From positions 96,001 to 160,000 of IMG/VR virus record IMGVR_UViG_3300042520_001767: a stretch of 64,000 nucleotides of DNA; one strand, written 5' to 3'. Shown here piece after piece: positions 25,522 to 45,419 of this stretch. The notes beneath the pieces are model-generated. The model searched no databases and was not told the DNA's origin. It saw nothing but the letters and a program-made list of their open reading frames with translations. Numbering within the stretch: position 1 is the first letter of the stretch; the number at the start of each line of letters is the position of its first letter. A program made the translations under genes and the position numbers. Origin of the DNA: a virus.

Positions 25522-26769
25522 TTATCTTTTTTCAACTCTGCTAATCAAATCCATGATTCTTTTTGTTGATGGGTCAACATATGCTGTACTTTCATTTAAT
25601 TGTTTTGAAGTACTAGTAGATGCTTCTTTAATAATTTTACGTTCTACTGATTCGTTGATTGGTTTTCTTGTTTCCAATTCATTAACAATATTTTTGTAAA
25701 GTTTTTTAGATTCAACAAGATTGGAAACCTCATCAAATCTTTTAATGATATTTTGTTTTTCAGATTTTGTTGTTGAATGTTCTTGTAAGATTCTTACAAC
25801 ATATGTAAGATTACTATTAAAAACAACAGTTTCAACTAATTTAGTTCTAAATTCTCTAAGAGCAGTTCTAAACTCATCATTCTCAGATTTTAATTTTTTA
25901 GCTTCAGTTAGTAGAGTATTGTATTTTTTAGCTGTTTCAGAAACGATTTGTCTAGCTTTAATGGTTTCATCAAGTTTTTCACCATCAACACTTTTTTTAC
26001 CGAAACCTAAATGAGATGAACCAGAACGTCTTTGTCCTTGGTGACCAGCTTTACCATTTACATTTGCAATATTTTCTTCAATTTCTTCTTCTTCAGTTTC
26101 TTCCTCATCACCAAATTCAGAATCACCTTCTTCAGATTCTACAGCTTCTTCGTCACCGAACTCACTTTCTTCTTCTTCAGTTTCTTCATCATCATCACCC
26201 ATTTCAATGTCATACTCAACATCAGTAGATTCCTCCTCATCATCACCCATTTCAATAGGTTCTTCATCAAAGTTTTCTTCATCAGCCAAATCAGTATCAC
26301 CTTGTAGTGAATCTAGTTTTACAACATATTCACCTGGTTCTGTAATGTTTAAGCGAAGTTCATCACCAACAATTTCGATTTCATCTTCACCACTCATTTT
26401 TTTGTAAATTGCGATTACGTCTTCATCACTTGCTCCAGTCATATCAAGTTCTTCAGATGATTCCTCATCTTCCATTCCCATTGCATCCATAGCTGGTAAT
26501 TCCATTTCTGAACCTCCCATTTCTGAATCTACATCTTCCATACCACCTTCTGCGTCAAATTCGTTTTCGTCTTCCTCTCCAGCTTCACCAGCTAAAGGGT
26601 CAACATCTTCTTCTTCATAAGTCATTTCTTCCAAGGACTCTTTCACTACACTATCAATTTCTTCTTTAGCTACGCTACGAAGTATTTCTTTTGTGTTTGC
26701 ATTGAGAGCTGATTGAATGTTTTTAATATCCAATAAAGCTTCTTCAAGTATTGATTTTTTTTCTGCCAT
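25522..26769 (-). CDS. prohead core scaffold protein (gp22-like)
   Basis: Highly acidic middle and coiled-coil C-terminus; lies between the protease and MCP genes; many L/I-x-E sites. Confidence 0.7.
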   Translation of the reverse strand: MAEKKSILEEALLDIKNIQSALNANTKEILRSVAKEEIDSVVKESLEEMTYEEEDVDPLAGEAGEEDENEFDAEGGMEDVDSEMGGSEMELPAMDAMGMEDEESSEELDMTGASDEDVIAIYKKMSGEDEIEIVGDELRLNITEPGEYVVKLDSLQGDTDLADEENFDEEPIEMGDDEEESTDVEYDIEMGDDDEETEEEESEFGDEEAVESEEGDSEFGDEEETEEEEIEENIANVNGKAGHQGQRRSGSSHLGFGKKSVDGEKLDETIKARQIVSETAKKYNTLLTEAKKLKSENDEFRTALREFRTKLVETVVFNSNLTYVVRILQEHSTTKSEKQNIIKRFDEVSNLVESKKLYKNIVNELETRKPINESVERKIIKEASTSTSKQLNESTAYVDPSTKRIMDLISRVEKR

Positions 26770-26889: not shown

Positions 26890-27606
26890 TTATTCGAATA
26901 AAAATTTATCTAAATCATTTAATAAATTTTCTTTTATTAATGGTTTTTTAGTTTCCACGTTTTCCACATAAGGTGTCATTTCTTCTCTGCTACGACCTAT
27001 CCAAGCATCTGGAGTAGATGGTGCTGTAACAACATCCCAACAAATTATTTCAAAATCTTCTTGAACAATTTGCTCACCATTCTTACCTTCTTTAAGTGAA
27101 CCTACACCTCTAGAAGAAACACCAATCTTAATTCTATTTCTTAATAAGTTCGCTACTTCATCACCTTTTGTTGATACGATACCATAATTTATAAACCCAG
27201 GTGTCATTAATATTTCCATTTTACCCATAAGCGTATGACCTTCCCACCACGTTTCAACAATGTTATGTGAAATCCTATCACCAGCTATAACGCTTGATTC
27301 TGGGTGGTCTAATTCACCTACAGCTCTACGTTCACGTATAGCTTCTTGATATAACCTATCTTGTGATTTAAGAATTGATTCTGGGTATATTCTACCATTA
27401 CGATTAAGAATACCGTATTTTTGTAGTACAACATAAACGATAAGTGGCTCAACGATGCTGATTCTACTACCGCTATCTATTTTTTTTATTTCATTTATGA
27501 AAGGTTGGTTCCTAGGTTCATCAGGCGAAATAAATCCAGCGTCATGTTCAATTAGAACTCCTGTACCGCTACAACCTCTTTTAATTACTTTTATATCTTT
27601 ATCCAT
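26890..27606 (-). CDS. prohead core protease (T4 gp21-like)
   Basis: NRNGRIYP, GELDHP, GVSSRGVGS and DVVTAPSTPDA. Confidence 0.92.
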   Translation of the reverse strand: MDKDIKVIKRGCSGTGVLIEHDAGFISPDEPRNQPFINEIKKIDSGSRISIVEPLIVYVVLQKYGILNRNGRIYPESILKSQDRLYQEAIRERRAVGELDHPESSVIAGDRISHNIVETWWEGHTLMGKMEILMTPGFINYGIVSTKGDEVANLLRNRIKIGVSSRGVGSLKEGKNGEQIVQEDFEIICWDVVTAPSTPDAWIGRSREEMTPYVENVETKKPLIKENLLNDLDKFLFE

Positions 27607-27644
27607 AGTATTGTTTATAGATATAAATATGTTAATTAAACAAA

Positions 27645-29020: not shown

Positions 29021-32000
29021 TTATTCATCCAACATTTTATCAATATCACCAATCATACCATCGATGTCTTTGTTTATTTTTAAATTTTTATTGTAAATTT
29101 TAATATTAGAAACCTTTTTAGTTTTGTCTGGTTTAATTGTTTCAACTAAAGCATCAACAAATCTATTTTTATACTTATTTGTTCTTTTATTTAAATCCCC
29201 AACCAATACTTCTTTTCTTTCAGTTAATAATTTTTCTACTTTTTTTAGAGACTCAGCAACTGTTTCAGGTTCTGCATCTATATCTAAACCACCTTCAGTA
29301 TCTATCGCACCTTCTTCTGGTACACCTTCTTCACCTTCAGCATCAGATTCATCACCGAAATCTAGGTCTTCACCACCCATTCCTCCACCTCCGAAACCTC
29401 CACCACTACCACCAGCACCAGAATCACCGCCTTCTTCACCTTCACCAGAACCACCACCATTTAACGCAACATCAAAGTCGCCATAAATTCTATCAACACT
29501 ATCAAACATGCCAGTATGTTTAATAACAGCAGCAGTATTCGCCAATTCAGCAGAAGCAGCTTTCTCCATACGTTGTTCTAGTAAATCTTGTTTTATTTCA
29601 TCATCAGACCAACCCATAATTTCTCTGTGTGCTCGTGTCCATGACATAACACCAAACCCAGTTCCAATATCAGACACAGCATCTTTAAGAAGACTAACTT
29701 TAAGTTGTAAATGTTCAACTTTTAACATTTCAGCTTGTGTTGATGGATTGTTAAGTGTAAGTGTGAAATTATCTAAATCATCCTCAAAACCTAAAAGATA
29801 TAAGTGTATGATAGCTATCTTGTTTAATTCTTGAAGAATTGATTGTTGAATTCTATTTATTGTTCTAGAAAAACGAATATCTTGAATAGCTAAATTTTTA
29901 CCATCACCAGTAGCATCATCAAAACCTAAAAACGGTTTAGGGACACGTAATGCTGTAAATAAATTACTTCTTAGGTATTCAATATCAGCAATTTGGTCTA
30001 AGTTTGATGCACCTGGCAAAGTATCTATTGGATTCGGTGCATTTTCATCCCTTACTGGTATAAAGAAATCTTGGTCATTTGCTAATTGATTATAACGTAA
30101 ATCAATTTGACCAGTTTGCGGGTCAACGATAGGCATACGTTTGAATCTATCAGCAATAGCGTTCACATATGGTTCAACATCAGCATCATCAATATTACCT
30201 ACAAATATTTTATATACACGTCTTTCTGGGGCTCTAGTTACACGATAAACAAGCATACTATCCTCTGATAGCAATAACTGTTTCCAAATACGTCTAGCTT
30301 TCTCTAAAACACTGGTTCCATATGGTAACCTTCTATCATCACCTAGTAATCTAAAGTGAGCAATTTGCCATGAGTTGAATTCAACATCACGACCTCTCCA
30401 GAAGAATTTAACTTTATCACCAGAAGAAACTTCTTCATCTGGTAATTCTCTACCAGAAATCATATCAAATAATCCAGATTCTCTTCTTTCCATTTCGTAG
30501 TTAGGCATCTGTTTAGAACCAATAACACCATTGGTTGCGTCTATATTTAAATAAATGAAATTATCACCGTATTTGCATGTGTTCCTAGTCCACATTGGTC
30601 CAGAAGTATGGAAATCTAATCTATTGAAAAATAAATCTTCTAATATTGTTTTAACACGTTTACTATCAGAATAGATATTAAGCATTTTACCTTGGTCATT
30701 TAGAGTTGTACAATTATGTGATATAATCATACCCGATTCACATTTTATAGCAAAATTAGAATCTACCGATGAATTTAATAAATCATAAACTTTGTTTTTA
30801 CCTAAATATTCTACACTAACAACTCTATGGTTCCCAATTGTAGAAACCATATCAGTCCAATTTTTATAACCTTTTTTAATTAAAAATGATGTTAACTTAA
30901 ATGAATCAATATTATATTTTTTACAATATATTTTGACTGAACGCACTGGGTTGGTTTGTGTTGATATGAATTCTTTTATTGTTTTAATGTTAAAACCATT
31001 ATTAAATATAAAATCCAAATCTTCAATTCTTGTTAAATTATATTTTTTACATAATAATTTATTGTAAGATATTACAGTACTTTTATTTAAATTAAATTTT
31101 AACATCGCTAATTTTCGTCTATTACCTTTTTTATTAATTAAATAAGTAATATATTCACTCTCATTAATATCGTTAATGTGTTTAGTTGTGTTATCGTAAT
31201 TAGGGTTAGTTTCTCCAAATCTACTAACACCGTACATTGGGTTATTTTCCCCAGCATTATTAAAAAATTCTTTTCTCTCTAATTCAGTTAAATTTTTTAA
31301 TTTATTGTTAAGACCATCTTGTAATTGTTTTATTTTTAAATTTTTATCACAATTGTCCCATGTTTTTTTACCATTTTCGCTAAAAATTTTTTTCATCTTA
31401 TTTGAAAATTCAATATTACCCCAACGTTCTTTATTTAAATCTGTGTGTAATTTTTGATGGTCATCCCAAAACATATATTCTAACTGTGAAGGGTCATTAT
31501 TTAATTTATTAAATGATTTATGGTGAACAACTATTTTTTCAGTTCTAGCTCTATCGTTTAATAATAAATTTTCTTTATTCTTTATTAATTCACTTTCAGC
31601 GACAATAACGTGAGTTAGTTTTGACCCACCATTAAAATTTGTTAAACTAACTTTCTCGTATCCTTTATAATCTAATCGTTTAGTTATAGATTTTAATGAA
31701 TCGCCATAAATTAAATCTTTGGTTTCTACCCATTTATTATCATAAGACAACCATTTATGATTATCAGTACAAACTATTTCGCTACCATCATCTAAAGTTA
31801 TTTTATATGTGTCTTTAACACCTTTTAAAATAACTTTATCAACCATAGATGGTTTTATTTTATCACCATTAATATCAACAGCATATACCCAAAAATTAGT
31901 TATGTTGTTTTCATACAATGATTCAATTGTATGTTCAGTACCATTTAAAAGGGGTATTATAGTTTCGCCACCCAAACATTCTTCCATCATCACGTCTAAT

Positions 32001-32308
32001 GCGGCAGCAATTGTTGGGTAAAACTCCATAGCCTCAAAATCGGCATAAGAACCAATACGAGTTGTTTCATAGTTGATTGATTGTTGGAACAAACCGTTTT
32101 CAACTTTTTTCCAAACAGAACCTAAGTATTTGTTTTGTTGTGCTTGTAATTTAGCTGTTTCATATTCAGCTTTATTATCTGTTTTCAATAACTCACCACT
32201 ACCAATATTGTAACGTTGTGTTGATGGTTGTTGTTGTTTTGGTTTTATCCCGTCAGGACTAATAACTTGTCCTAATTTTTGAAATATAGTTAAATTTTTA
32301 TTTGCCAT
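29021..32308 (-). CDS. portal protein (T4 gp20-like) interrupted by one intein
   Basis: YGTSVLEKARRIWKQL, YRVTRAPERRVYKI, EDFF-like QDFFIP, IADIEY and LRVPKPFLG; mature length 673 aa after removing a 422-aa intein. Confidence 0.9.
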   Translation of the reverse strand: MANKNLTIFQKLGQVISPDGIKPKQQQPSTQRYNIGSGELLKTDNKAEYETAKLQAQQNKYLGSVWKKVENGLFQQSINYETTRIGSYADFEAMEFYPTIAAALDVMMEECLGGETIIPLLNGTEHTIESLYENNITNFWVYAVDINGDKIKPSMVDKVILKGVKDTYKITLDDGSEIVCTDNHKWLSYDNKWVETKDLIYGDSLKSITKRLDYKGYEKVSLTNFNGGSKLTHVIVAESELIKNKENLLLNDRARTEKIVVHHKSFNKLNNDPSQLEYMFWDDHQKLHTDLNKERWGNIEFSNKMKKIFSENGKKTWDNCDKNLKIKQLQDGLNNKLKNLTELERKEFFNNAGENNPMYGVSRFGETNPNYDNTTKHINDINESEYITYLINKKGNRRKLAMLKFNLNKSTVISYNKLLCKKYNLTRIEDLDFIFNNGFNIKTIKEFISTQTNPVRSVKIYCKKYNIDSFKLTSFLIKKGYKNWTDMVSTIGNHRVVSVEYLGKNKVYDLLNSSVDSNFAIKCESGMIISHNCTTLNDQGKMLNIYSDSKRVKTILEDLFFNRLDFHTSGPMWTRNTCKYGDNFIYLNIDATNGVIGSKQMPNYEMERRESGLFDMISGRELPDEEVSSGDKVKFFWRGRDVEFNSWQIAHFRLLGDDRRLPYGTSVLEKARRIWKQLLLSEDSMLVYRVTRAPERRVYKIFVGNIDDADVEPYVNAIADRFKRMPIVDPQTGQIDLRYNQLANDQDFFIPVRDENAPNPIDTLPGASNLDQIADIEYLRSNLFTALRVPKPFLGFDDATGDGKNLAIQDIRFSRTINRIQQSILQELNKIAIIHLYLLGFEDDLDNFTLTLNNPSTQAEMLKVEHLQLKVSLLKDAVSDIGTGFGVMSWTRAHREIMGWSDDEIKQDLLEQRMEKAASAELANTAAVIKHTGMFDSVDRIYGDFDVALNGGGSGEGEEGGDSGAGGSGGGFGGGGMGGEDLDFGDESDAEGEEGVPEEGAIDTEGGLDIDAEPETVAESLKKVEKLLTERKEVLVGDLNKRTNKYKNRFVDALVETIKPDKTKKVSNIKIYNKNLKINKDIDGMIGDIDKMLDE
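30713..31978 (-). mobile_element. intein (422 aa) with HNH endonuclease in the portal gene
   Basis: MMEE|CLGGET...CTDNHKW...VVHHKSFNKLNNDPSQLE...GMIISHN|CTT; GENNPMYG NUMOD3-like motif. Confidence 0.9.
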
Positions 32309-32612: not shown

Positions 32613-35600
32613 TTATCTTTTTCCAAACAACCAAGCATATTCACCCCTAGGGTCTTGAACATTTTTGTATGCACTATGATTTGGATTTATCTTTTTCTCA
32701 ACTTGCTTTGTTTCTGGGTTTATAGTTGTTACCGTTGATGATGGGTTTGATGTTGATAACCAACTAGACAATATTGCCTTTGTTTGTTTTTCTAATCTTT
32801 CTAAATTTTTAAAAGAATGTTCCATTACCCATAAAGCCATCCCCAACGACATAATTAAATCATCATGATAGCCTTCCATGTGGTCTGGTCTACCATTCTT
32901 ATATATAAATGTTTTCATTTCAGAAATCAATCTACTAGAACGTATCTTAATACCATTTGTTCTAATTTTATATTCTAGATTAGAAATCATTGGTAAACGT
33001 ACATTGGTCGCATGAAACCCAGGTATTTTATTTTGTTTATTATATGAAGTTAATTCTCTTTGTCTAGCAGAAAGAATTTTACCATTTGTGTCATCATAAT
33101 GCAAGTGTTTATATTCAAATTCAAGTAGTTTCAACACAGTAGAAACACCCATACCACCAGTAACATCGACTACTGAATAAGCTTTATATAAATTACCGTA
33201 CTCCTCAACTATCTGAGCTAATAAATCTGGTTGAATTTTACCTTGATATTCCATTACTTGTTCCATAGTAGTGAAATCCACAATAACAATAGTTGAAGAA
33301 TCTTCACCATCACCCCTTGAAACGTCAATTCCAGCAATGTACTGATGCCCCTCTTGCGGTTCTTCCCAAACCCATATCTCTTGTTCTAAACCAGCTGTAT
33401 ATTTAGGTTCTTTTACATTGTTCTTTTCGTGAAATTCAATATATTCTTCATTTATTACGTTACCCCCAGAACCAATAAACGATACGTCAAGCTCTTGAGC
33501 AATCATTTTGGCATCGTTATTCATACCCATACACATCTGTTCATACCATGTAGATGTAGGTTTCCAACCATCTTCAATTTTTTTAGTATAAGATTCGAAA
33601 GTAAATTCGTATTCTCTTTCTACTTGGTCGTCTTTTAACCAACTTAAATCTTTATTATAACGTAAATCTTCATACCATTTCATTTCAACAATGTTGAAGT
33701 TATTCTTTTTATTTTTAGCTTGGTCATAAGTTTTATAATACAAACTATCCATTCCATTTGGTGTTTGGTGACCTAAAATTCCATTATATATTACTGAATG
33801 ACACCAAAAATCAGTTTCATCATTTGGTAATGAGAAATCATACGTTTTATTTTTTGAGTGACTTATATTTTTTATTTTTTCCCATTTTCCATTTAATAAT
33901 AGTATTTTATCAATATTATATTGACTCAAATCAAGTAATAATACATTTTCAAAATAGTTGATAAACTTTATAAATTTATTTTTATTTAAATCATATGTTT
34001 TGTTTTTTAAAGATAAATGTAAATCATTAACTTTTAACCCAGTCCCAGATAATTTTCTAACTAAATTGAAATCGTCAATAATCTCTCTAATAATTCGTTT
34101 ACCATTTGGTATAAATTCAGATTGGTTATCATTATTAAAAATAGGTAGAGATAAACTTTTATTTTGTTTTCTCTTAAACCTAAAACCAATTAAATTGTAA
34201 TATTTTTTTGCATTATTTGATATAGCTGAAATCCTATAAAAATTACTAGTAACTTTAACTTTTTTAGTTATAGGTGTTACACCTTCATTATAATCTGTCA
34301 AAATACCAAAATTAAGGAATAACATTCTTATCTGCTCAACCAATCGTTTAGAAGACATATTAATACCTATCCTACCACGAACAGAATCACTATAACCATC
34401 GCCATCCATAATACCTTGTAACATAGCGATTATATTCTCTCTAGACATTTTTAATAATCTACTTGGTATTATTTTTTCATTTGCTTTTTTGGTTAAATCA
34501 AAACCTAAATGTTCTAACAAACTACCTAAATATTTTGAACCAATAGTGTAGTGTAAATTATCATGAGATGAATACTTAAAACCACAGTTAGTTATTGCTT
34601 CGCTAACATCGTCACCACAAGTTATTGTTATACTAGTACCTATATGGTTATTATTTTTATCTATTGTTTTATAAACAGAACCTTCAGAAATATATAACCC
34701 AATCAAATAAGCTAAATCAGTAGTTATTTTATTGAATTTATCCTTTGGTATATTGTGCTCTTTATTTGATTCTTTATATTCAAAACCAATTTCATCATAA
34801 TTACCCCATAACTCAAAACCAGATTGTATGTTAATGTAATCACCTTCATTTAACTGTGACATTTCATACCAATCAAATTTGTTATCAATTTTAGAATAAC
34901 ACCATAATTTATGTGTGTGTGTACCCTCTATACTACCAGAAGTTGATTCTAATTTAATAGTTTCTTGTAACCCATTATTAACAAATAAATTAGAAGTTCT
35001 TGTTTTAAATAACCCTTGAATTGAATAATCTTGAATATTATAACCTAAGTTTGGGTTATCACCCTTAGATTCATCAATGAATTCAGAAACTTCTTTAACA
35101 CCTTCATTAGTAAAAACAAACGTATCTTTTGTTACACATGAAATAAGAGTTGCTCGACCACCAGTATTATGGCTAACTACGCCATTTGATATGAATGAAT
35201 TAGTTTCTGGTACGTGTAAATCATACGTATAATCTTCCCCATTATTTATTTCAATTATTTCATCAATATAATATTTCTCGTTATTTTTTATTTGTTCATA
35301 CAATCCCAATAAATCCATATCGTTAGGTATTTCAATCATCAAACGATTCAATGATTCATAACTTAATCGCTCATATTTTGAAACCCAAAAACGCTCTAAG
35401 AATCTAAATTTAGATTTAGTTAACCCATTTTTATCTAAAATCTTTAGTATTGTTTTTTGAGGTACATCTATGAATCTACTATTTAATTTTTTACCAATTA
35501 AATATTGTTTATTTTTTTGTTTTCTATCTAATCTAAAACCTATCTCATCATAAAATTTAATAGCATGGTCAGAATAAATTTTTAAATTATATATCGTACA

Positions 35601-37058
35601 AACATGGTCTTTATTAGTTATTATTGACGACTCCGAAGTTTTTCGTATTTCTTTTTTTACGTGTGAAATAATTCCAAAATTTAAAAGTAATGTTTGTAAA
35701 GTTTTAATTAATTTTTTTGATGTACTAGAATATTTAATATCTTTTATTGTTGACATTCCATCCCCATCAAACATACCTTGTAAAAAATTAACGATAACTT
35801 CTTTAGACATTTTGAGTATTGATAGCGGTATCTCTTTATCTCTAGCGTTATGTTTTTTAAGTCCAAACTCTTCAAACCATTGTACCAATTCAGTTGAGTG
35901 ATACATATAATGCCTATCATCTACTTTCTTAAACCCATTACCTAATTTAGCTATATCATTTATTAAAAAATTAGTTATCTGCGCATCAACATTAGTTATC
36001 GTTATACCTCTACTGGTAAAATTACCCTCAGCAACAAATAAACCTAACAAATAACAAAAATCTAAATTATCTGATAAGTTTAATGGTATATTAATGTTTT
36101 TTTGGTTGTAATTAACTCTATCAAATGAAAAATCAAATTTACTATCTTGCCCAAAATAATTTTGGTTATAATTAATAATTGGTTTATCACCGACAACTAA
36201 TTCATTCATTCGTACCCAAACTTCTTCACCATTTCTATTAATTAATAACGGATGTTTCCAACTACCCTCTAACTCTATACCTAATTTTGTTTTTATTTTA
36301 AAGGTTTCACCATACTCACTTACAAATGTTTGAGTTGCTGGTGTTAAAACACCATCTTTATTACAAACCATGTGTGGTACGTCTAAATCAGTAAACCCTA
36401 ATTTATCTTTTTCAGTAACCAATTCATCCAACTCAACTAAACCGTTTTCGGTTAATATTAACGAGTCTTTAGTTAAACAACCTAACGCAGTAAGTGCAGC
36501 ACCAAATACTTCAGCACCATTATCAATATATGCAGCCTCATCCATGATAAGGAATGTAGGTGTAAATCCCCTCAAAGCATCTTTAGATGTTGCTACTGCT
36601 TTTACACGACTACCGTTAGGTAATTTAATCTCTTTCTTTGAATCTGTAAGGAAAATTGATTTACCTTCGTTTTTAGGGTTACCATAATATTCATGACCCC
36701 ATACCCATCTAGGTAATTGATTTAGAAAATCTTTAATCTTAGCCAAGAACTCAAAAGCTAACTCTTGTTTATTGGCAATAATCAGAATGTTTTCTGGGTT
36801 ATCAGAATCAGCAAAACCAACCTTTATTGACATATACGCAGCTGTTGTTGTTGATACCCCAGCCTGTCTAGGTTTTGTTACAATATTAAAACGGTTTTTT
36901 TCGTATGCTGTGATAATCTCTCTCTGTCTAGGGAATAATCTAAATGGTACAAAACCCTCTTGAGTTTTATCAAACGTTTCCAAATAGGTTTCAATTGCAT
37001 AAGTCGGTTGAGTTAGACATCTAGCGTATTCTTTAAATATCTCGTTAGTTGTAAGCAT
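32613..37058 (-). CDS. terminase large subunit (T4 gp17-like) with two inteins
   Basis: KPRQAGVST Walker A, RGFTPTFLIMDEAA, reconstituted ISTPNG, GIDVSRGDGEDSS and HDDLIMS; mature length about 585 aa from the ATG at 37058. Confidence 0.92.
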   Translation of the reverse strand: MLTTNEIFKEYARCLTQPTYAIETYLETFDKTQEGFVPFRLFPRQREIITAYEKNRFNIVTKPRQAGVSTTTAAYMSIKVGFADSDNPENILIIANKQELAFEFLAKIKDFLNQLPRWVWGHEYYGNPKNEGKSIFLTDSKKEIKLPNGSRVKAVATSKDALRGFTPTFLIMDEAAYIDNGAEVFGAALTALGCLTKDSLILTENGLVELDELVTEKDKLGFTDLDVPHMVCNKDGVLTPATQTFVSEYGETFKIKTKLGIELEGSWKHPLLINRNGEEVWVRMNELVVGDKPIINYNQNYFGQDSKFDFSFDRVNYNQKNINIPLNLSDNLDFCYLLGLFVAEGNFTSRGITITNVDAQITNFLINDIAKLGNGFKKVDDRHYMYHSTELVQWFEEFGLKKHNARDKEIPLSILKMSKEVIVNFLQGMFDGDGMSTIKDIKYSSTSKKLIKTLQTLLLNFGIISHVKKEIRKTSESSIITNKDHVCTIYNLKIYSDHAIKFYDEIGFRLDRKQKNKQYLIGKKLNSRFIDVPQKTILKILDKNGLTKSKFRFLERFWVSKYERLSYESLNRLMIEIPNDMDLLGLYEQIKNNEKYYIDEIIEINNGEDYTYDLHVPETNSFISNGVVSHNTGGRATLISCVTKDTFVFTNEGVKEVSEFIDESKGDNPNLGYNIQDYSIQGLFKTRTSNLFVNNGLQETIKLESTSGSIEGTHTHKLWCYSKIDNKFDWYEMSQLNEGDYINIQSGFELWGNYDEIGFEYKESNKEHNIPKDKFNKITTDLAYLIGLYISEGSVYKTIDKNNNHIGTSITITCGDDVSEAITNCGFKYSSHDNLHYTIGSKYLGSLLEHLGFDLTKKANEKIIPSRLLKMSRENIIAMLQGIMDGDGYSDSVRGRIGINMSSKRLVEQIRMLFLNFGILTDYNEGVTPITKKVKVTSNFYRISAISNNAKKYYNLIGFRFKRKQNKSLSLPIFNNDNQSEFIPNGKRIIREIIDDFNLVRKLSGTGLKVNDLHLSLKNKTYDLNKNKFIKFINYFENVLLLDLSQYNIDKILLLNGKWEKIKNISHSKNKTYDFSLPNDETDFWCHSVIYNGILGHQTPNGMDSLYYKTYDQAKNKKNNFNIVEMKWYEDLRYNKDLSWLKDDQVEREYEFTFESYTKKIEDGWKPTSTWYEQMCMGMNNDAKMIAQELDVSFIGSGGNVINEEYIEFHEKNNVKEPKYTAGLEQEIWVWEEPQEGHQYIAGIDVSRGDGEDSSTIVIVDFTTMEQVMEYQGKIQPDLLAQIVEEYGNLYKAYSVVDVTGGMGVSTVLKLLEFEYKHLHYDDTNGKILSARQRELTSYNKQNKIPGFHATNVRLPMISNLEYKIRTNGIKIRSSRLISEMKTFIYKNGRPDHMEGYHDDLIMSLGMALWVMEHSFKNLERLEKQTKAILSSWLSTSNPSSTVTTINPETKQVEKKINPNHSAYKNVQDPRGEYAWLFGKR
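33765..35138 (-). mobile_element. intein 2 of TerL (458 aa, LAGLIDADG, ends in His-Gln)
   Basis: LIS|CVTKDT...LIGLYISEG...MLQGIMDGDG...NGILGHQ|TPNG. Confidence 0.9.
35166..36479 (-). mobile_element. intein 1 of TerL (438 aa, LAGLIDADG)
   Basis: TALG|CLTKDS...LLGLFVAEG...FLQGMFDGDG...NGVVSHN|TGG. Confidence 0.92.
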
Positions 37059-37111
37059 ATTCTTTTTAGTAATAAATATGCAGAAATCAACTAAAAACAT
37101 TTAATCAAATA

Positions 37112-37158: not shown

Positions 37159-38472
37159 TTAAAATAATTCATCAATATCAAAACCATCTTCTTGGTCTTC
37201 ATTATCACTATGACTATCTGTGTTATCAATTGTTGTACCACCCATAAGTTCATCAAAATCAAAACCTAATTCATTTGAGACTTCTCCATCATTATATTTA
37301 GCACTTTTATTTATAGCTTCATTAAATTCTTCTGTTTTAATATCATTACTAACTTCATTTACAATATCTTTAATAATTTTCTTCCCTTCATTAGTGTTTG
37401 CCATTACTTCTCTCATTTTTACATTGAATTCGTCTACTGGTAATGCGGCCATCTCACTATAAATGTGGTGTTTCATATGGAAATCATCTGGTTCTATTGC
37501 ATTCGTGAATCTAGACCAAAGACCTGGACCCATACGCATATCCCATGGTTCAGCAGCTAAAAAGTCAGCTTTATTTATAACAAATTCACCAGTTTTTTTA
37601 TCTTTAGGTAAACCATGTGCTGACATTAATTCCATAACACCTTTTACTAATTCATGGATAAGAACTGGGAAAACCATAGCTTGTACATGAATAACAGCTT
37701 TTGGGTTATCCTTACATGGAAACATAACCCTAACAACACCACCATTTACACCATTTTCCATATTAGGTATAATATAGTACATGTAATCAGCTGCTGCCAT
37801 CATTTTAGAATATTTATTAGATAAACGAGGTTCAATGTCGGTTAATTCATCATCAACCATGTGAAACATATGATTACATTTTTTAGCTGCACCTTGTGTC
37901 ATTGCGTTAAGAAATCTTCTTTTATAAACTTCTTTATTTGCGTTCTCCATTGATTCATGACTATCAAATTCCATTTGAACCTCCATAGGTTTAGGGTTCT
38001 TTTTTGTTCCTTCCATATTTATTCTATCGGTTAGTTCTGCATGTATTTCAACAACATCTTCACCCATATCATATTCTTCACGAATCATTTTTATCGCCAA
38101 GTCAACTAATTTTTTTTTGTTTTTTGATTCTAATTCCATAGTTTCAATAACCAGTGGCATCATGTTACTCATAACTTCAGAATTATCAATTGAATCACAA
38201 TCAAAAGCTCGCTTATATCTTTTTGCTACTTCACTAAATCTTTCCCCCATGATTGTTTCCTCAAAACTATTTTCATGACCTTCTGGTAATACTGGACTAC
38301 CACTTAAAGAGTGTCTTTTCTCTCTCAAATCAGCTTCAAGTTCTGGGTTCATTCTTTCAGTTAAACCTTCTGGGTATAGAATACTTTCATTTAAAGGTTT
38401 AGACTTACTAACTTGTTTACCTAATTTAGACTTTCTTAGTGCTTCTTCAGCTATTTTTCTGTAATCACTCAT
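37159..38472 (-). CDS. hypothetical protein (head module)
   Basis: 437-aa ORF containing an HELVKG motif; LNES near the N-terminus. Confidence 0.55.
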   Translation of the reverse strand: MSDYRKIAEEALRKSKLGKQVSKSKPLNESILYPEGLTERMNPELEADLREKRHSLSGSPVLPEGHENSFEETIMGERFSEVAKRYKRAFDCDSIDNSEVMSNMMPLVIETMELESKNKKKLVDLAIKMIREEYDMGEDVVEIHAELTDRINMEGTKKNPKPMEVQMEFDSHESMENANKEVYKRRFLNAMTQGAAKKCNHMFHMVDDELTDIEPRLSNKYSKMMAAADYMYYIIPNMENGVNGGVVRVMFPCKDNPKAVIHVQAMVFPVLIHELVKGVMELMSAHGLPKDKKTGEFVINKADFLAAEPWDMRMGPGLWSRFTNAIEPDDFHMKHHIYSEMAALPVDEFNVKMREVMANTNEGKKIIKDIVNEVSNDIKTEEFNEAINKSAKYNDGEVSNELGFDFDELMGGTTIDNTDSHSDNEDQEDGFDIDELF

Positions 38473-39530
38473 TATTTTATGTCTTTTACTTTTAATATTT
38501 TTATTACATTTCTTTTTTTGTTTAACCCTCCAAATAGTTCTTTTTTCTTAATAATTCTACCCTCATTTGTTGGTGATGGTTTATCACCAGTTAAAGGTGC
38601 TTCTGATGGGTCATCTTTTGCTAAATCTTTATATGAAGAAATTATTTGCGGTAATTTTTCAATTGGTACGTTTATTAATTGTCCCATTTTTGCTAAAAAA
38701 ACCGATTGTTCCATTGGTGTATCTAATTTGGCAAAATATTTACCAAACATATTCGTCATCTTATCAACCAATATCTTTACATCACCTTTTAGTTTATCAA
38801 TGTTTATTTCTTCATCTAAACCACCTTCACTCTTTCTTTCAAAACCTTCTTTGAAATATTTACCAGCCCTAAAGGCTTTTAATTGTCTAATACCCATATA
38901 ATCCTCTTCTGGACCCAATTTACTACCAGACCTCATCATCTCTTTGTAGTTTTTGAATTTACCAACAACTTGACCAGAATTTATATTAACGAAGAAATGT
39001 TTATAACCACCCAAATCATTTAGATTTAAATGATTCATTAAACCTCCTTTATCAAAATCATTTTCTTCAACTGGTCGCTTATTAGATATTTCTTTTTCCA
39101 TAACTGGTTTAACTATATTTTCCTCAAAAAAATCGACAGAATATATAACGTTTTGACCATTATCATCTGTTTCATCATGTGAAAAAACAGCCATAACTAT
39201 CTGGTTATCAGAACCTAAACCTCTAACCATTTGATATTTTTGTACACCTATAGTAAAAGGTTGTGAAACTTTACCAGTTTTATCATCTTTTATATTTGAT
39301 AGATATTTTATAGTTTCTTTATCTTTAGGTGCTATAACTGCTTCTGGTTCCAACATATTTAATTCCTCATCAACAATGTTAATGTTAAAATTTTTACCTA
39401 ATTTTTTTAAATCATTAGAAACAGATGATAAATCTTGTTTTTTAACGTTAATACTTGATTTTGAATTTGAACTACTTGAACTATTAGAGCTACCAAACAT
39501 AGTTTCTTGTATTGTATTTTTATTTTTCAT
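38472..39530 (-). CDS. hypothetical protein
   Basis: 352-aa ORF coupled to the next gene. Confidence 0.55.
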   Translation of the reverse strand: MKNKNTIQETMFGSSNSSSSSNSKSSINVKKQDLSSVSNDLKKLGKNFNINIVDEELNMLEPEAVIAPKDKETIKYLSNIKDDKTGKVSQPFTIGVQKYQMVRGLGSDNQIVMAVFSHDETDDNGQNVIYSVDFFEENIVKPVMEKEISNKRPVEENDFDKGGLMNHLNLNDLGGYKHFFVNINSGQVVGKFKNYKEMMRSGSKLGPEEDYMGIRQLKAFRAGKYFKEGFERKSEGGLDEEINIDKLKGDVKILVDKMTNMFGKYFAKLDTPMEQSVFLAKMGQLINVPIEKLPQIISSYKDLAKDDPSEAPLTGDKPSPTNEGRIIKKKELFGGLNKKRNVIKILKVKDIK

Positions 39531-39534
39531 TGTT

Positions 39535-39927
39535 TTATTTTTTAAATTGCAATATTAGGTCGTTTTCATATAGTTTAGCTTCAACTGATTCACTAGTCTC
39601 ACCAAATTTAAAACAAAGTCTTTTTTCTGGGTAAGAGTCATAAGCATTTATATTCTCCCAAGCCAAAGCTATAACACCATCGATTGCATCCCAAACAGCA
39701 AATGTATCACTATCTTGGATTACATCTAAGTTTAATTCCGATTCTAGTCTACCTACTTTTTTTATAAAGTTATCGTGTGGTGGTGAAGGTCTTCCAGAAG
39801 CTGGAAAAGTATCCCAATCATCACCGTCAATATTTTTATTTGTATCTGAAAAGATAAATTCATAAATGAAATTACCCTTGTAATCTTTACCAACTCTATT
39901 TACATATATTAAAAACAATTCTTTCAT
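39535..39927 (-). CDS. hypothetical protein
   Basis: 130-aa acidic/aromatic ORF. Confidence 0.55.
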   Translation of the reverse strand: MKELFLIYVNRVGKDYKGNFIYEFIFSDTNKNIDGDDWDTFPASGRPSPPHDNFIKKVGRLESELNLDVIQDSDTFAVWDAIDGVIALAWENINAYDSYPEKRLCFKFGETSESVEAKLYENDLILQFKK

Positions 39928-41636
39928 TAGTTAATGTACATATTTAATTCATAATTACCACTATCCATACGATAGATTTGAGCGTGGAAACCTTTTCGTT
40001 GTGGTTTTCCGTTTAATGTAAGTTCTTTATTATATCTTTGTGTTTGACCATAAGCAACATGTTGAGGGTCAGATAATTCAAATTCGATTGGTTCGTATCC
40101 TCTTGTAATTACATATCTTTCAGCTTCAGAAAAACAACTAGCAAGTGTTTTATGATAAACCTCATAATCAAATTTACCCTCATTCATTGCTTTTGGGTCT
40201 GGTGTTACTTCTGGGCTTGGTAAAAAAGGTTTATTTTTTCTACTTGGCACTATATTAGGTTGTATTTTATCTGGTGCTGGTTTAATTTGTGGTTGAACTG
40301 TTGGTTCAACATCATGATTAAATGTTTCTTGTACTTTCATCTTTAAATAATTTTTATCAAAGGTACTGTTTTTTTTATCAGAAATCAAACCCTCACCAAC
40401 AATTTTAGAAACTGGTTTTGATGACCACATTTTACATGACCAATACTTAGGTGTTGTTTTATCTTTTGCTTGTGCACATTTATGTCTTGCTCTGAAAGAT
40501 TTTCTCCTCTCTGGGTTATCTCTTTTTATTTCCATATTAGGGTCACCAAAATTAACCTTTATAACATTACCTTTTTTATTTTTAACATAAACTTTGAATT
40601 TTTTTACATCACCAGAACTAGGTTTCCCTAATTTAACTTCTTTCCCATGATATTCAGCTTCATTTAAATTAACGTTTTCAACAGAACCATATTCATCAGT
40701 ATAACCACCTTCGGTTTCACCATCATACTCATTTAAATTACCTTCAAAAAAGTGGTACACTTCTTCAATATCATCAGCAGATGAACTTATATGGTCAACA
40801 GCCCATGCATGTCCATTTGCACACATTTCATCAATTTGTTGTCGGTTCATTTCTAATAACTCCCCAGATGCGTGGTGTATCGTTTTAAGGTTTTGCCAAA
40901 ACATATAATTAAGTGACTCATTATCGTTTATCACTTCATGGTTTTCGTTAATTGGGACACAATTAGGTACTTGTTTACCATTTTTTTCTTTCATACCTAT
41001 TTGTTTATAACCTTTCCAACATGACTCATTTAGTTTATCATTTGAACCTGGTTGGAACATGTTGTTTTTCTTAGGTTTATCCAAGAATAAATTATCCATT
41101 TCATATAATGAATATTCTTGTAAACCTTCTTCATCTCCAGATTCATCAGAACTTATTTCATCATTAGAAATATCACTAGTTTCATCACTAGAATTATCTT
41201 CACCATTATTACCAGCTGAATTAATTTTTTTAATTATATCTTTTTTATCGTTTTCGTCCATTTCAGAAGTGTGTGTTGCTGAAATTAAAGAGTTTATCGC
41301 AAATTTTTCTAAGTCAAAGTCAGGTTGACCTTGAGTTTCAGTGTATTTTCTTAAAGATTGACCCAGTTTACCTGTAAGTTGTTCAATAAATTTTTTAGGG
41401 TCTGTTTCTTCATCTGCATCAACACCAGCATCAAATGGTTCATCATCAAATGGTTTATCATCAGATACTGGTTCTTCACTACCACTTTCACTATCCCCAA
41501 AATCACCAAAACCAGCTTCATCAGCTGGTTCGGAAATAGGTTCCGCTGGGGCTGGTGCTGGAGCCGCTGGGGCTGGTGCATCAATCTTCAGCTTATATTT
41601 TACTTCGTTTACTTTTTCGTTACTACTTTTTTTTTT
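39927..41636 (-). CDS. downstream (-1 frame) part of a frameshift-fused modular protein
   Basis: The track ORF 39927-41261 stays open for about 125 more codons upstream (KKKSSNEKVNEVKYKLKIDAPAPAAPAP...) to the A10 run, with no ATG/GTG/TTG; contains a CWKGY..VPNCVP module and a DUF6321-like KFKVYV..VNFGD..RRKSFRARH module. Confidence 0.65.
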   Translation of the reverse strand, partial: KKKSSNEKVNEVKYKLKIDAPAPAAPAPAPAEPISEPADEAGFGDFGDSESGSEEPVSDDKPFDDEPFDAGVDADEETDPKKFIEQLTGKLGQSLRKYTETQGQPDFDLEKFAINSLISATHTSEMDENDKKDIIKKINSAGNNGEDNSSDETSDISNDEISSDESGDEEGLQEYSLYEMDNLFLDKPKKNNMFQPGSNDKLNESCWKGYKQIGMKEKNGKQVPNCVPINENHEVINDNESLNYMFWQNLKTIHHASGELLEMNRQQIDEMCANGHAWAVDHISSSADDIEEVYHFFEGNLNEYDGETEGGYTDEYGSVENVNLNEAEYHGKEVKLGKPSSGDVKKFKVYVKNKKGNVIKVNFGDPNMEIKRDNPERRKSFRARHKCAQAKDKTTPKYWSCKMWSSKPVSKIVGEGLISDKKNSTFDKNYLKMKVQETFNHDVEPTVQPQIKPAPDKIQPNIVPSRKNKPFLPSPEVTPDPKAMNEGKFDYEVYHKTLASCFSEAERYVITRGYEPIEFELSDPQHVAYGQTQRYNKELTLNGKPQRKGFHAQIYRMDSGNYELNMYIN

Positions 41637-42610
41637 ACAGTACCTTCAGTTAATGAAGTAATCATTTTATCTAATTTTTTCACACTTTCTTCCATAGCTC
41701 TCAAAGAAGCCAAATCCATTGCATCGATATCACCATCACCACCTTCTGGTTCAACATCTAATCTTTGTTGACCACCATGTAATTCTTCATTTGTTTGTGA
41801 TAAAATAGAAGAAATTTTTTCTAAGTCAGTTATTGTTCCACCTGGATACGCTAACGATACTATTGAAATATTCTCTGGTGTAACATCAACACCTCTTTCA
41901 ACTAATTTTGATTTTAAAAATTCAACTAAATCATATGCTTCATGGTCAACACCCTCAGAAGCATTTTCTGGAATATTTATTTCTCTTGGTGGGTTAGGTA
42001 ATTGATTAGGGTCGTTTTTTCTTCCCATTTGATAATCAACGTATTCTTCCTCTTCATTTCTAGCCATCATTTCTTCAATAGCTTGTTCAAATTCATTTAA
42101 TTCTTCTTCTAACGTTTCTTCTTCATACACTTCTTCTTTGTACATTTCTTCATTTCCATGTAAATTACCAGCACCAGAAAATCCGTTACTAGAACCACTA
42201 GAAAAACCAGCAATACCACTTTCAGATAACAAATTATCATCTTCAAATACATTTATATCACCACCTTTATTAAAAGCTTCAGCCAATGATTTAAACTTAA
42301 AATTTAATTGCTTTATTGCACGAGCATAAGATGGATACGCTTCTTCTTTTTTGTTTTGTAAACCACCGATATATTTGAAATCCTCTAACACTAAACCAGT
42401 TGTTTTAGTTGTTTTTTTGATATAATATTCATGGTTTTCTCTAACAATAGCATATGCACTACCATCTGGTCCAATTTTAGTTAATTCAACAGCTGAATTT
42501 GTTTTATTTTCATTTTCATTTATTGGTTTCATTCCCATAAGAGATAATTGACGTTCAAGAATTTCTTTACCTTTAAGACCAATCGGACTAATTAATTGTT
42601 TATTTTTCAT
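41609..42610 (-). CDS. hypothetical protein; upstream part of the putative frameshift fusion
   Basis: 333 aa, ends TVKKKVVTKK a few codons after the A10 run. Confidence 0.65.
   Translation of the reverse strand: MKNKQLISPIGLKGKEILERQLSLMGMKPINENENKTNSAVELTKIGPDGSAYAIVRENHEYYIKKTTKTTGLVLEDFKYIGGLQNKKEEAYPSYARAIKQLNFKFKSLAEAFNKGGDINVFEDDNLLSESGIAGFSSGSSNGFSGAGNLHGNEEMYKEEVYEEETLEEELNEFEQAIEEMMARNEEEEYVDYQMGRKNDPNQLPNPPREINIPENASEGVDHEAYDLVEFLKSKLVERGVDVTPENISIVSLAYPGGTITDLEKISSILSQTNEELHGGQQRLDVEPEGGDGDIDAMDLASLRAMEESVKKLDKMITSLTEGTVKKKVVTKK
41627..41636 (-). other. candidate -1 frameshift / slippage site (A10)
   Basis: GTA AAA AAA AAA GTA on the coding strand; the -1 frame opens three codons before the run (TGA AGG TAC TGT AAA). 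Confidence 0.6.
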
Positions 42611-42631
42611 AATTTATTACTTTTTATTTTG

Positions 42632-42874
42632 TTATAAGTTTGGGCTACCTAAATATACATCCCTATTTTCACCTAATAGGTAACACCCAGTACCACCAGA
42701 TACTGACCTTACCCATAATGAGATATTAGAAGACGGTGCAACGTTAATTGATACATTATTAACTAGAATTACACAACCAGCGGTTCCACCATATATTTCG
42801 CTATAAGTATGGGCTGTTAAATTAGCATTAGCTGCTAGTACTATAATACTATGTATATCATTTATTTTTGGCAT
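42632..42874 (-). CDS. small protein paralogous to the N-terminal module of the DUF285 protein
   Basis: YSEIYGGTAGC..VNNV..NVAP.S..SL.V.S.S..TGCYL.GE matches residues about 20-70 of ORF 43179-45419. Confidence 0.65.
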   Translation of the reverse strand: MPKINDIHSIIVLAANANLTAHTYSEIYGGTAGCVILVNNVSINVAPSSNISLWVRSVSGGTGCYLLGENRDVYLGSPNL

Positions 42875-42939
42875 AACTTTTTTGTTTTTATTATAAATAT
42901 GTTAATATTTTAATTTGTTCTAAATATGTATTTTTTTAT

Positions 42940-43179
42940 TTAATTTGGTAAATTAGATGCACAACAATCACCATCACAACCAAAACCACAAAAATCATTT
43001 GGTGTTAATTCAATATTGTTTTTACTAAAATATTGTCCAAAAAATATTAACCTCTCATTTAATTCAATTTCTGAATCAAAAAACTCTAAAAATGGTTGTC
43101 CACTTTCAATTATTTGATTATCTTTTAATTCCCCATAAAGGAAAACATCTAATTCATTATGTGTAAAAAAATATCTCAT
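42940..43179 (-). CDS. small hypothetical protein with Cys-rich tail
   Basis: ATG at 43179 overlapping the upstream stop; C-terminal FCGFGCDGDCC. Confidence 0.45.
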   Translation of the reverse strand: MRYFFTHNELDVFLYGELKDNQIIESGQPFLEFFDSEIELNERLIFFGQYFSKNNIELTPNDFCGFGCDGDCCASNLPN

Positions 43180-45419
43180 TATATTATCCCTCCATCTATT
43201 ATTGTCCAATTGTTAGGTGCTGATATTAAAACAGCTCTAGCTGATAACGCAGCGTTTGTGTATTTAATAGTTCCAAAATTAATAACTAAATTTGGTTTAA
43301 CTGGTCTAGATGCCCAACCTATTAATAAAGAATCATAATTTGTTGTTGAGTAATCGTTAAATGTTTTCCCTTCCATAAAATTAGTAGTAGTGGTTGAAAA
43401 CGAAGTTACTCCACTAACAACCCAATTATTAATTGGTTGGTCAAAACCAGTTGCGTAATAAAAACAACTTGACATACCAGAAACTGATTTTGTATCCCAT
43501 GAGTTTATTGGTTGGTTAAAATTATTTTGGTTAAAATAAATGGAATTTATGTTAGTCACCTTACTTGTATTCCAGTTTTTAATACTATCTGAACCACCAT
43601 TATTAAAACTACCATAATCAAATTTAACACCAAACATAAACGACATACTAGTAACATTTGAGGTACTCCACGCACTATATGTAACACCACTAATTGTAAC
43701 TAACTTAGTTCCAATATCTTGATTGAAATTATTACAACCATAAAACATTGTTTGCATTGTTGTCACCTTACTTGTATTCCAGTTTTTAATACTATCTGAA
43801 CCACCATTATTAAAACTACCAATCATATTAAGGTTATTACTAAACATAAACGACATACTAGTAACATTTGAGGTACTCCACGCACTATATGTAACACCAC
43901 TAATAGTAACCATCTTGGTTCCAATATCTTGATTGAAATTTGGTTGACTTTGGAACATCGTTTGCATTGTTGTTACTTTACTTGTATTCCAATTTTTAAT
44001 ACTATCTGAACCACCATTATTAAAACTACCATTAGTTGTAGACCCACCATTAAACATAGTTGACATATTAGTGACATTACCCACATCCCATGCACTATAT
44101 GTAACACCACTAATTGTAACTAACTTAGTTCCAATATCTTGATTGAATTTTGGTTGATTTTGAAACATTGTTTGTGTTGTTGTTACTTTACTTGTGTTCC
44201 AATTTCCAATATTTTGGTTAAAATTACCTATATTTGTTGTTGTATTAGCAAATATAAATGCCATACTAGTGACATTAGCCACATCCCAAGCAACATATGT
44301 TACATCATTTATACTAACTAATTTAGTTGATAAATCTTGATTGAAATTTACTTGATTTTGGAACATCGTTTGTATTGTTGTTACTTTACTTGTATTCCAA
44401 TTTCCAATATTTTGGTTAAAAGCACCAAAATTCGGTCCTATAATACCAAACACAAACGCCATACTAGTAACGTTAACAACATCCCAAGCAACATATGTCA
44501 TACCATTTATTGTAACTAATTTAGTTGATAAATCTTGATTGAAATTTACTTGATTATAAAAAGTACCGTACAGGGTCGTTACTTTAGTTGTGTTCCATTT
44601 ACTGATATCTTGGTTAAAAAGACCACGACCAGTTGTTATAAAAAAAGTAGCGTTAAGTGTTATAACATTACTTATATTCCAATTACTTATATCTGAATTA
44701 AAACTAATACTATCAGAAAATGTTGCGTCTAAACTTGTTATGTTTGAAACATCCCATTCATTACTTCTATTTATTGTAGTTATGGCTAAACAACCTCTAA
44801 ATGAACCAGCTAGTGTTGTTGTATCAGTTAAATTTAAAACATCACTAACATTATTTAATGTTAAATTAGCACAACCATAAAAATGTTGGTCTGTTGCACC
44901 TAATCTAAAACTATTTCCCCATTGAGTTATCGCTATTAATTTTAACCTATCACCAGTGTTAGCAAATCTCCATCCATTACATACCCCAGTTATTTTTATT
45001 TGATAAATACCAGGTAAACTATAAGTATGTGTGGTTTCAGCTTGATTCCATGAAGTTATTTTACTACTGGTTCCATCACCCCATTCAACAATAAATCTAT
45101 AAGTACCTGTCGATATTAATGGTAATCTTATTTGTGTTGCGGTTGAACTACCAGCACTGGTGTTATTAGTTAACCATGTTGATATAAAACTTTTTCCAGA
45201 TTCAAACCATGGTCTTTCACCACCTAAATAACAACCAGTAGTTGCACTTATTGATTTAACAATAAGTGAAAAACTAGAATATGGTGAAACATTAACTAAA
45301 ACGTTATTCACGTTCATTGTACAACCAGACGAACCTCCAAGTATTTCAGTGTAATTTAAATCGTATAATTCACCATCTTCAGCTGGAACAACGAAACTAT
45401 GTGCATTTATATTTGGCAT
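43179..45419 (-). CDS. PKD-like domain + DUF285/BspA-type repeat protein (probable virion surface or adhesion protein)
   Basis: VEWGDG...THTY..PG.Y PKD motif; repeated FNQDI..WNTSKVT.M..MF units; NYDSLLIGWA cap. Confidence 0.75.
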   Translation of the reverse strand: MPNINAHSFVVPAEDGELYDLNYTEILGGSSGCTMNVNNVLVNVSPYSSFSLIVKSISATTGCYLGGERPWFESGKSFISTWLTNNTSAGSSTATQIRLPLISTGTYRFIVEWGDGTSSKITSWNQAETTHTYSLPGIYQIKITGVCNGWRFANTGDRLKLIAITQWGNSFRLGATDQHFYGCANLTLNNVSDVLNLTDTTTLAGSFRGCLAITTINRSNEWDVSNITSLDATFSDSISFNSDISNWNISNVITLNATFFITTGRGLFNQDISKWNTTKVTTLYGTFYNQVNFNQDLSTKLVTINGMTYVAWDVVNVTSMAFVFGIIGPNFGAFNQNIGNWNTSKVTTIQTMFQNQVNFNQDLSTKLVSINDVTYVAWDVANVTSMAFIFANTTTNIGNFNQNIGNWNTSKVTTTQTMFQNQPKFNQDIGTKLVTISGVTYSAWDVGNVTNMSTMFNGGSTTNGSFNNGGSDSIKNWNTSKVTTMQTMFQSQPNFNQDIGTKMVTISGVTYSAWSTSNVTSMSFMFSNNLNMIGSFNNGGSDSIKNWNTSKVTTMQTMFYGCNNFNQDIGTKLVTISGVTYSAWSTSNVTSMSFMFGVKFDYGSFNNGGSDSIKNWNTSKVTNINSIYFNQNNFNQPINSWDTKSVSGMSSCFYYATGFDQPINNWVVSGVTSFSTTTTNFMEGKTFNDYSTTNYDSLLIGWASRPVKPNLVINFGTIKYTNAALSARAVLISAPNNWTIIDGGII
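43530..44620 (-). repeat. tandem coding repeats of about 198-210 bp
   Basis: The WNTS/TKVT anchor recurs at 43561, 43768, 43978, 44188, 44386 and 44584 (spacings 207, 210, 210, 198, 198) with near-identical DNA. Confidence 0.85.

Follow-up and report, generated by a model that had tools for sequence, protein, structure and literature searches.

Does the stretch of viral DNA studied here hold two adjacent genes, or a single gene that is read in two ways? The stretch, below called the window, comprises 64,000 nucleotides (nt) of the IMG/VR virus record IMGVR_UViG_3300042520_001767 (positions 96,001-160,000), with a G+C content of 28%, and its source is a large, uncultured T4-like phage. On its minus strand an open reading frame (ORF) for 333 amino acids (aa), ORF1, meets a run of ten adenines (A10) close to its end, while the -1 frame is open across the same run and continues as a second coding region, ORF2. 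Based on the comparison of this locus with its relatives, we consider the run to be, with high probability, a genuine and conserved recoding site.

The two reading frames at the A10 run

The 3' end of ORF1 reads GTA AAA AAA AAA GTA GTA ACG AAA AAG TAA, so that the stop codon stands five codons past the run. The open stretch of the -1 frame extends from 41645 to 39927 (572 codons), beginning 9 nt, or three codons, ahead of the run, and its first ATG, at 41261, is found only 128 codons in. One extra A, or a slip of one base back, joins 328 residues from ORF1 to 566 residues from beyond the run, giving a fusion of 894 aa. A preliminary description of this DNA had proposed the same arrangement, with the -1 frame opening three codons before the run and a fusion of about 894 aa, and recomputation of the coordinates confirms it; the Pro/Ala linker and the motifs that it quoted from the -1 frame are also present, as is the lack of an early start codon.

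The A10 run alone proves nothing, because A runs of at least nine are no rarity in so AT-rich a window (14 matches, against about 30 expected from shuffling), and the weight of the argument comes from conservation. Further A9 runs are located inside two coding-strand ORFs, at 3512-3520 on the plus strand in the ORF 3449-4306, and at 38110-38118 on the minus strand in the 437-aa ORF upstream of the terminase gene. Slippage at nine A's therefore cannot be very costly in the host.

Conservation of the frame break in relatives

Searched with ORF1, IMG/VR gives 80 related loci, selected by ORF1 similarity only, with 43-88% identity over the best-matching segment and on contigs of up to 362 kb. The N-terminal part of ORF2 is matched in 79 of these 80 loci, and every match lies downstream of ORF1 and in the -1 frame relative to it. 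Overall, the loci contain 61 distinct junction sequences, in which the two frames overlap by 13-73 nt with the run always inside the overlap. Among them, 50 have A10, nine have A9 and two have A11, and none has a run shorter than nine. The run begins at differing codon phases, and in the nucleotide alignment of 42 junctions it is the sole invariant block, the flanks being diverged. The preliminary description had named the conservation of the frame break in related phages as a check, and the -1 break is indeed kept throughout. Its remark that the -1 frame opens three codons before the run holds for the window and does not carry over to the relatives, where the opening lies anywhere between 2 nt inside the run and 36 nt ahead of it, often 0-9 nt upstream.

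At the protein level, conservation in the -1 frame starts immediately past the run, typically with S-L-x-E-x-K-[YF]-K-L-K and then a Pro/Ala-rich stretch. No start codon common to the family was found in the -1 frame of the 61 junctions compared. In addition, an exhaustive HMMER search at E<=1e-3 yields 789 cluster representatives (clusters at 50% identity). Among the best 150 of these 789, 108 have the split form, with KKK and 0-9 further residues at the end, 25 are in-frame proteins that unite the ORF1 domain with the start of ORF2, and 19 are neither split nor fused.

These data bear on two explanations that involve no recoding. A homopolymer error in the sequencing or assembly of a single in-frame gene is the simpler one, as an error of one base in an A10/A11 run looks identical in a single genome. 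However, the 61 distinct junctions were drawn from numerous contigs and samples, their runs measure 9, 10 or 11, and all of them need the same -1 shift, while the 108 split representatives end in the same manner; such an error is effectively excluded because of this conservation of the junction across relatives. The other explanation is that ORF2 is a separate gene which initiates by itself at a non-canonical codon, with no fusion made. Gene callers do annotate the two halves separately, and in some relatives an ATG occurs 13-30 codons into the -1 frame. Against this, the family lacks a common start position, the conservation of the -1 frame begins at the run and upstream of any ATG, the frame often opens just 0-9 nt ahead of the run, and in some relatives the same genomic position is occupied by a natural in-frame fusion. 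The conservation of the junction thus makes independent initiation of ORF2 very unlikely, and we give the two-gene explanation hardly any credence.

In-frame fusions and selection on both products

The in-frame fusions include proteins whose genes have no A run at all (e.g. P0136, P0146, P0151 and P0115), while six fusions among the best 150 representatives retain KKK right before the KYKLK motif. In one locus (L082) an A10 run is in frame with both halves, as checked at the DNA level, and the gene order is unchanged. The fused loci with visible neighbours (L082, L083 and L084) occupy the same position, with three small genes before the terminase gene. The fusion is taken to be a real product because distant relatives encode both halves in frame at the same genomic position. 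In a further in-frame relative, of 753 aa (L081:638-2899), there are two A runs: the usual pre-run motif is followed by A11 at codon 253, and KYKLK is preceded by A10 at codon 416, about 160 extra residues separating the two runs.

The short product can be examined through its tail, the codons between the run and the stop. We analysed 21 distinct junctions having a five-codon tail, over the 15 nt past the run. Variation amounts to 1.31 bits at the third positions of the zero frame, versus 0.66 and 0.46 bits at the other two, and the tail V-Y-T-L-K is retained through synonymous changes which alter residues of the -1 frame. Because the variation in the overlap concentrates at zero-frame third positions, the tail of the short product is indicated to be under purifying selection. 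Judged from these sequence comparisons, both products are probably used. The suggestion of the preliminary description, that a short form of 333 aa and a long form of about 894 aa are made in a programmed manner, thus gains support from the conserved break and from the distant in-frame fusions.

A different way of obtaining both forms would be phase variation at the DNA level, in which replication slippage toggles A10 and A11 in the phage population and each genome makes one form only. The six in-frame fusions with KKK before KYKLK, and the in-frame A10 of L082, are in agreement with it. However, the loci picked by ORF1 similarity are all out of frame, while free switching should yield a sizeable in-frame share, and selection on the zero-frame tail fits a stable out-of-frame state. 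We regard phase variation as very improbable.

Polymerase slippage or ribosomal frameshifting

We propose that one gene is given two readings. Standard decoding of the A10 template would end at the stop codon five codons past the run and yield the 333-aa product, while a fraction of expression would move to the -1 frame on the run and yield the 894-aa product, the first 328 residues being common to both. For this move we lean, on sequence grounds, towards slippage of RNA polymerase as the main route. The polymerase would slip on the T10 template, the transcript would gain one A, and ribosomes would then read the fusion normally; -1 slippage of the ribosome on A_AAA_AAA may contribute.

Efficient slippage of bacterial RNA polymerase in vivo has been reported at nine A/T, and the RNA-DNA hybrid measures 9-10 bp (PMC5009743). 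The polymerase route is favoured because the run is never shorter than nine, which matches the length of the hybrid and that of efficient slippage whereas a heptamer suffices for the ribosome, because the phase of the run varies, and because the first 40 nt downstream hold no stable structure (mean z -0.59 in per-sequence folding of the relatives).

Programmed -1 ribosomal frameshifting as the main route would start from a uniform A10 transcript, with some of the ribosomes slipping back by one base on the Lys codons. Every junction contains A_AAA_AAA as an in-phase heptamer, which is trivially true for runs of at least nine, and tailed phages use unstimulated low-level shifts (PMC5009743). A GAAGGTGA-like stretch, that is the Shine-Dalgarno (SD)-like GAAGGT(GA), precedes the run in some subgroups only, and it also encodes a conserved E-G. 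The heptamer would be enough for this route, yet none of the junctions has fewer than nine A's, and the phase is not fixed. Together with the position of the hairpin treated below, these points leave ribosomal frameshifting as a possible, rather doubtful, main route.

Hairpins downstream of the run

When the relatives are folded one by one, a strong stem-loop appears, beginning within the K-L-K codons of K[YF]KLK. Compared with codon-preserving shuffles it has a mean z of -2.73, and 75% of 57 sequences fall below -2, while control segments 400 nt downstream average -0.21. The foot of the hairpin is conserved in sequence, and the upper stem varies by clade with the pairing kept, about ten solutions being counted. 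A covariance model built from eight sequences gives 34 matches, two of which are reverse-strand overlaps of forward hits. In the resulting alignment 86% of the cells pair, versus 29-43% with the partners slid, and seven pairs are changed on both sides versus 3.2 in shuffles, although the alignment was fitted to the model and is biased in favour of structure. RNAalifold on the 42 junctions gives no consensus structure and no pairs, which we ascribe to the alignment, since per-sequence folding and the covariance model did find the hairpin.

A conserved hairpin downstream would suit ribosomal frameshifting. Frameshift stimulators are usually spaced 5-9 nt downstream of the slippery site. In most loci, however, the hairpin is 25-48 nt past the run (the earliest 25-30 nt), and it is 82-179 nt past it where an extra segment is inserted. 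As its distance ranges from 25 to 179 nt and its position follows KYKLK, not the run, the hairpin is ruled out as a classical frameshift stimulator. The hairpin is missing from four relatives that have the motif without the A run (z +0.6 to -1.3), while two in-frame relatives with the run retained have it, both samples being small and of related sequences.

In the window this hairpin (hairpin 1) is only moderately stable and is followed by a second one (hairpin 2), which resembles a terminator and is the only terminator-like site within 39500-43300, about 96 nt past the A run. The conserved hairpin at the start of the putative cargo region, that is, of the modules of ORF2 described below, is itself terminator-like in some clades. 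Hairpin 2 overlaps the conserved E-P-A-D-E-A-G-F-G-D-F-G stretch, and the same hairpin occurs in many relatives; it could be a translation-sensitive attenuator. One possibility is that the hairpins stop or destabilise transcripts whose cargo frame goes untranslated.

Architecture of the two products and a possible role in the head

The best-conserved part of the family is the N-terminal domain of ORF1 (about residues 38-125), and in the AlphaFold2 (AF2) model residues 40-130 have a predicted local distance difference test score (pLDDT) above 90; the overall pLDDT is 72 for ORF1 and 61 for ORF2. The ORF2 part is modelled as beads on a string, with folded modules at residues 66-137, 207-225, 241-298, 323-360 and 488-565 and disordered linkers. 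Searches for known relatives yield little. Neither half has a Pfam match, ORF1 has no PHROG match and ORF2 matches only PHROG families of unknown function. No sequence match of ORF2 was found in PDB, and the AF2 models of ORF1 and ORF2 have no PDB fold match at E<=0.001 (best VIA Z 5.3). The BFVD fold search returns uncharacterised phage proteins only, and the ESM Atlas only hypothetical viral clusters, below 0.9. By tblastn against 50,697 GenBank phage records ORF1 finds no match, and ORF2 matches such records only through single small modules. Single modules of ORF2 (e.g. residues 327-407, phrog_7595) are also encoded elsewhere, by small genes of their own or in other surroundings, in phages of Pelagibacter, Roseobacter, Flavobacterium and Methylophilales, in a Nitrosopumilaceae virus and in a 642-kb uncultured phage, which suggests that they belong to a widely shuffled pool of small modules.

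The ORF2 part is rich in the tripeptide [LIM]-N-E, with five sites versus 0.53 expected, by which it stands out most clearly among 65 ORFs of the window; family-wide the count is 109 versus 27.5 expected, i.e. about 4-fold. In the AF2 model each site falls at a border between disordered linker and folded module, and also at an end of the tblastn matches to relatives. In addition, most junctions have a [LIV]-x-E-x-K pattern past the run. Cleavage by T4-type prohead proteases takes place behind the Glu of short x-x-E motifs (PMC5694885), and in giant phages long N-terminal propeptides direct proteins to the inner head (PMC9026906). The window encodes a gp21-like prohead protease, and its capsid protein has L-T-E|A at the place that corresponds to propeptide removal in T4 gp23. 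A longer motif, K-P-[IL]-N-E, occurs near the N-termini of ORF1 (residues 28-32) and of the 437-aa protein (37159-38472, minus strand; residues 25-29), and near the C-terminus of the acidic scaffold-like protein (25522-26769, minus strand; residues 369-373), and may be a shared protease or targeting signal.

From its genomic context, a role of the ORF1/ORF2 product as a head-module protein is plausible. It would be a late head-associated protein, with the ORF1 part as the common and abundant partner, and the gp21-like protease would cut the modules apart at [LIM]-N-E. Tentatively, the long form may be a polyprotein inside the head, with slippage setting its amount. A fuller and more speculative version, which we think unlikely in its entirety, is a packaging device resembling retroviral Gag/Gag-Pol. 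Abundant ORF1 would act as a prohead-core or targeting protein, the minor slippage fusion would carry a swappable chain of cargo modules into the prohead, the protease would free the modules at [LIM]-N-E, and the hairpin would couple expression of the cargo frame to the arrival of ribosomes in that frame.

Several points weigh against the reading of slippage and head role proposed here. Sequence cannot separate the two slippage routes, because any run of at least nine A's holds an in-phase A_AAA_AAA, and both products are predicted from the sequence. The role of the hairpin is explained by neither route. Given the two coding A9 runs of the window, either slippage at A9 is modest in the host or some loss is tolerated. 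The [LIM]-N-E counts across relatives are not independent events. Finally, gene order is the whole basis for the term head protein, with neither half having a Pfam family or an informative fold match.

Genomic context of the locus

The features discussed here are listed in Table 1. ORF1/ORF2 lie on the same strand as the capsid, portal, terminase and protease genes and upstream of them, in the order thyA, a DUF285 repeat protein gene, two small ORFs, ORF1/ORF2, ORFs of 130, 352 and 437 aa, and terminase. The capsid protein has 621 aa and its Pfam match covers mainly residues 340-609; judged from this coverage, a long Gly/Thr/Ala-rich insertion or extra domain seems to precede the core fold.

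The sequence TATTTATA is the reverse complement of the T4 late-promoter octamer and precedes several gene starts, on either strand, by 2-23 nt. A site at 42892-42899 (minus-strand reading) precedes the 80-aa ORF which heads the ORF1/ORF2 transcription unit, and others are found e.g. at 27622, 28991, 48804 and 52542. Overall, the octamer occurs 34 times versus 22.6 expected.

Table 1. Positions, in window numbering, of the recoding locus, its candidate cleavage sites and the neighbouring head and packaging genes.
Feature	Position	Strand	Remarks
ORF1, short product by standard decoding	41609-42610	minus	333 aa
A10 run, proposed slippage site	41627-41636	minus	A9-A11 in relatives
Overlap of zero and -1 frames	41609-41645	minus	37 nt; the shift must occur here
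-1 frame portion of the long product	39927-41627	minus	566 aa past the run; linker, conserved helical domain, small variable modules
K-Y-K-L-K codons	41586-41600	minus	family-wide motif just past the junction; 5' foot of hairpin 1
Hairpin 1	41545-41592	minus	35 nt past the run; -15.1 kcal/mol, z -1.8; moderate here, strong in most relatives
Hairpin 2, terminator-like	41495-41540	minus	9-bp stem, then U-rich tail; inside ORF2 coding sequence; -18.3 kcal/mol, z -3.75
V-N-E just before KYKLK	41604-41612	minus	candidate protease site right past the junction
L-N-E, linker/module border	41025-41033	minus	sequence and AF2
I-N-E, module border	40944-40952	minus	sequence and AF2
L-N-E, end of helical-bundle module	40728-40736	minus	sequence and AF2
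L-N-E, start of small beta module (phrog_7595)	40659-40667	minus	sequence and AF2
M-N-E, start of C-terminal module	40179-40187	minus	sequence and AF2
gp23-type major capsid protein	23611-25476	minus	
Very acidic scaffold-like protein	25522-26769	minus	
gp21-like prohead maturation protease	26890-27606	minus	phrog_207, E 1e-38; context, outside the recoding site
T4-type portal with intein	29021-32308	minus	
Large terminase with two inteins	32613-37100	minus	

Comparison with known systems

The closest parallels for the proposed mechanism are bacterial. In dnaX of Thermus thermophilus (tau/gamma), where slippage takes place on nine A/T, a homopolymer of at least nine lies in coding sequence, the products have a common N-terminus, stops in the other frames are nearby and no RNA stimulator is needed, all as here (PMC5009743). 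However, the Thermus template encodes the long form and slippage leads to the short one, whereas nearly all relatives of the present gene have the short form in the template; the family is a different, viral one, and its slippage is deduced. In Shigella, for spa13, mxiE and other genes, the template also encodes the short form, and an added base gives a C-terminally extended functional protein as a minority, which in spa13 accounts for 25-30% (PMC5009743). These type III secretion genes are bacterial, not phage, and are without a modular cargo chain. The -1 frameshifting of Escherichia coli dnaX and of insertion sequence (IS) elements, on A_AAA_AAG, is similar in its slippery site of Lys codons, its direction and its two products. 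In those systems the heptamer has a fixed phase and is flanked by an SD-like element upstream and, a few nt downstream, by a hairpin, whereas here the run is 9-11 nt long and of variable phase, and the conserved structure is never nearer than 25 nt.

Among phages, lambda G/GT and T7 gene 10A/10B are also late genes with a major short and a minor extended form encoded in overlapping frames. The present locus differs in standing upstream of the terminase gene and not of the tape measure gene, in its sizes (333 aa for ORF1 and 566 aa for the extension) and in its long A run, and no similarity in sequence or fold was found between the lambda/T7 pairs and ORF1/ORF2. A frameshift of the tail-chaperone type, as in lambda G/GT, is rejected, as the locus is in the wrong position, with thyA and a DUF285 gene upstream of it and the large terminase three genes further on, and its products of 333 and 894 aa are not those of a small overlapping ORF pair before a tape measure gene.

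For the predicted role, comparison may be made with the internal proteins of T4, which have capsid-targeting sequences, and with the inner-head proteins of giant phages, which have long propeptides and gp21-type cleavage. The present locus shares with them an encoded gp21-like protease, repeated hydrophobic-x-Glu motifs at module borders and a place in the late head and packaging region, packaging and cleavage here being predicted. Among known internal head proteins we found none that arises by frameshifting or consists of several cargo modules in a chain. Retroviral Gag/Gag-Pol is a functional analogy, in which an abundant short product is accompanied by a rare frameshift fusion with extra domains that is later cut by the viral protease. 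There is no homology, the virus type is another one, and the analogy depends on the unproven polyprotein reading.

Significance

The slippage mechanism is of a known kind, while the gene family is undescribed, and our literature searches found no description of the ORF1/ORF2 family. The long protein is missing from annotations because gene callers split the gene in two. This affects a very widespread group of uncultured T4-like large phages, with 789 clusters at 50% identity and contigs of up to 362 kb. With relatives having runs of 9-11 in differing phases, in-frame versions and versions without the run, the site is a natural test bed for distinguishing polymerase from ribosomal slippage. If the polyprotein reading is true, the locus would show how the phages supply the head with small proteins whose set varies and whose proportion is fixed, and would provide a predicted cleavage motif for the prohead protease of these phages.

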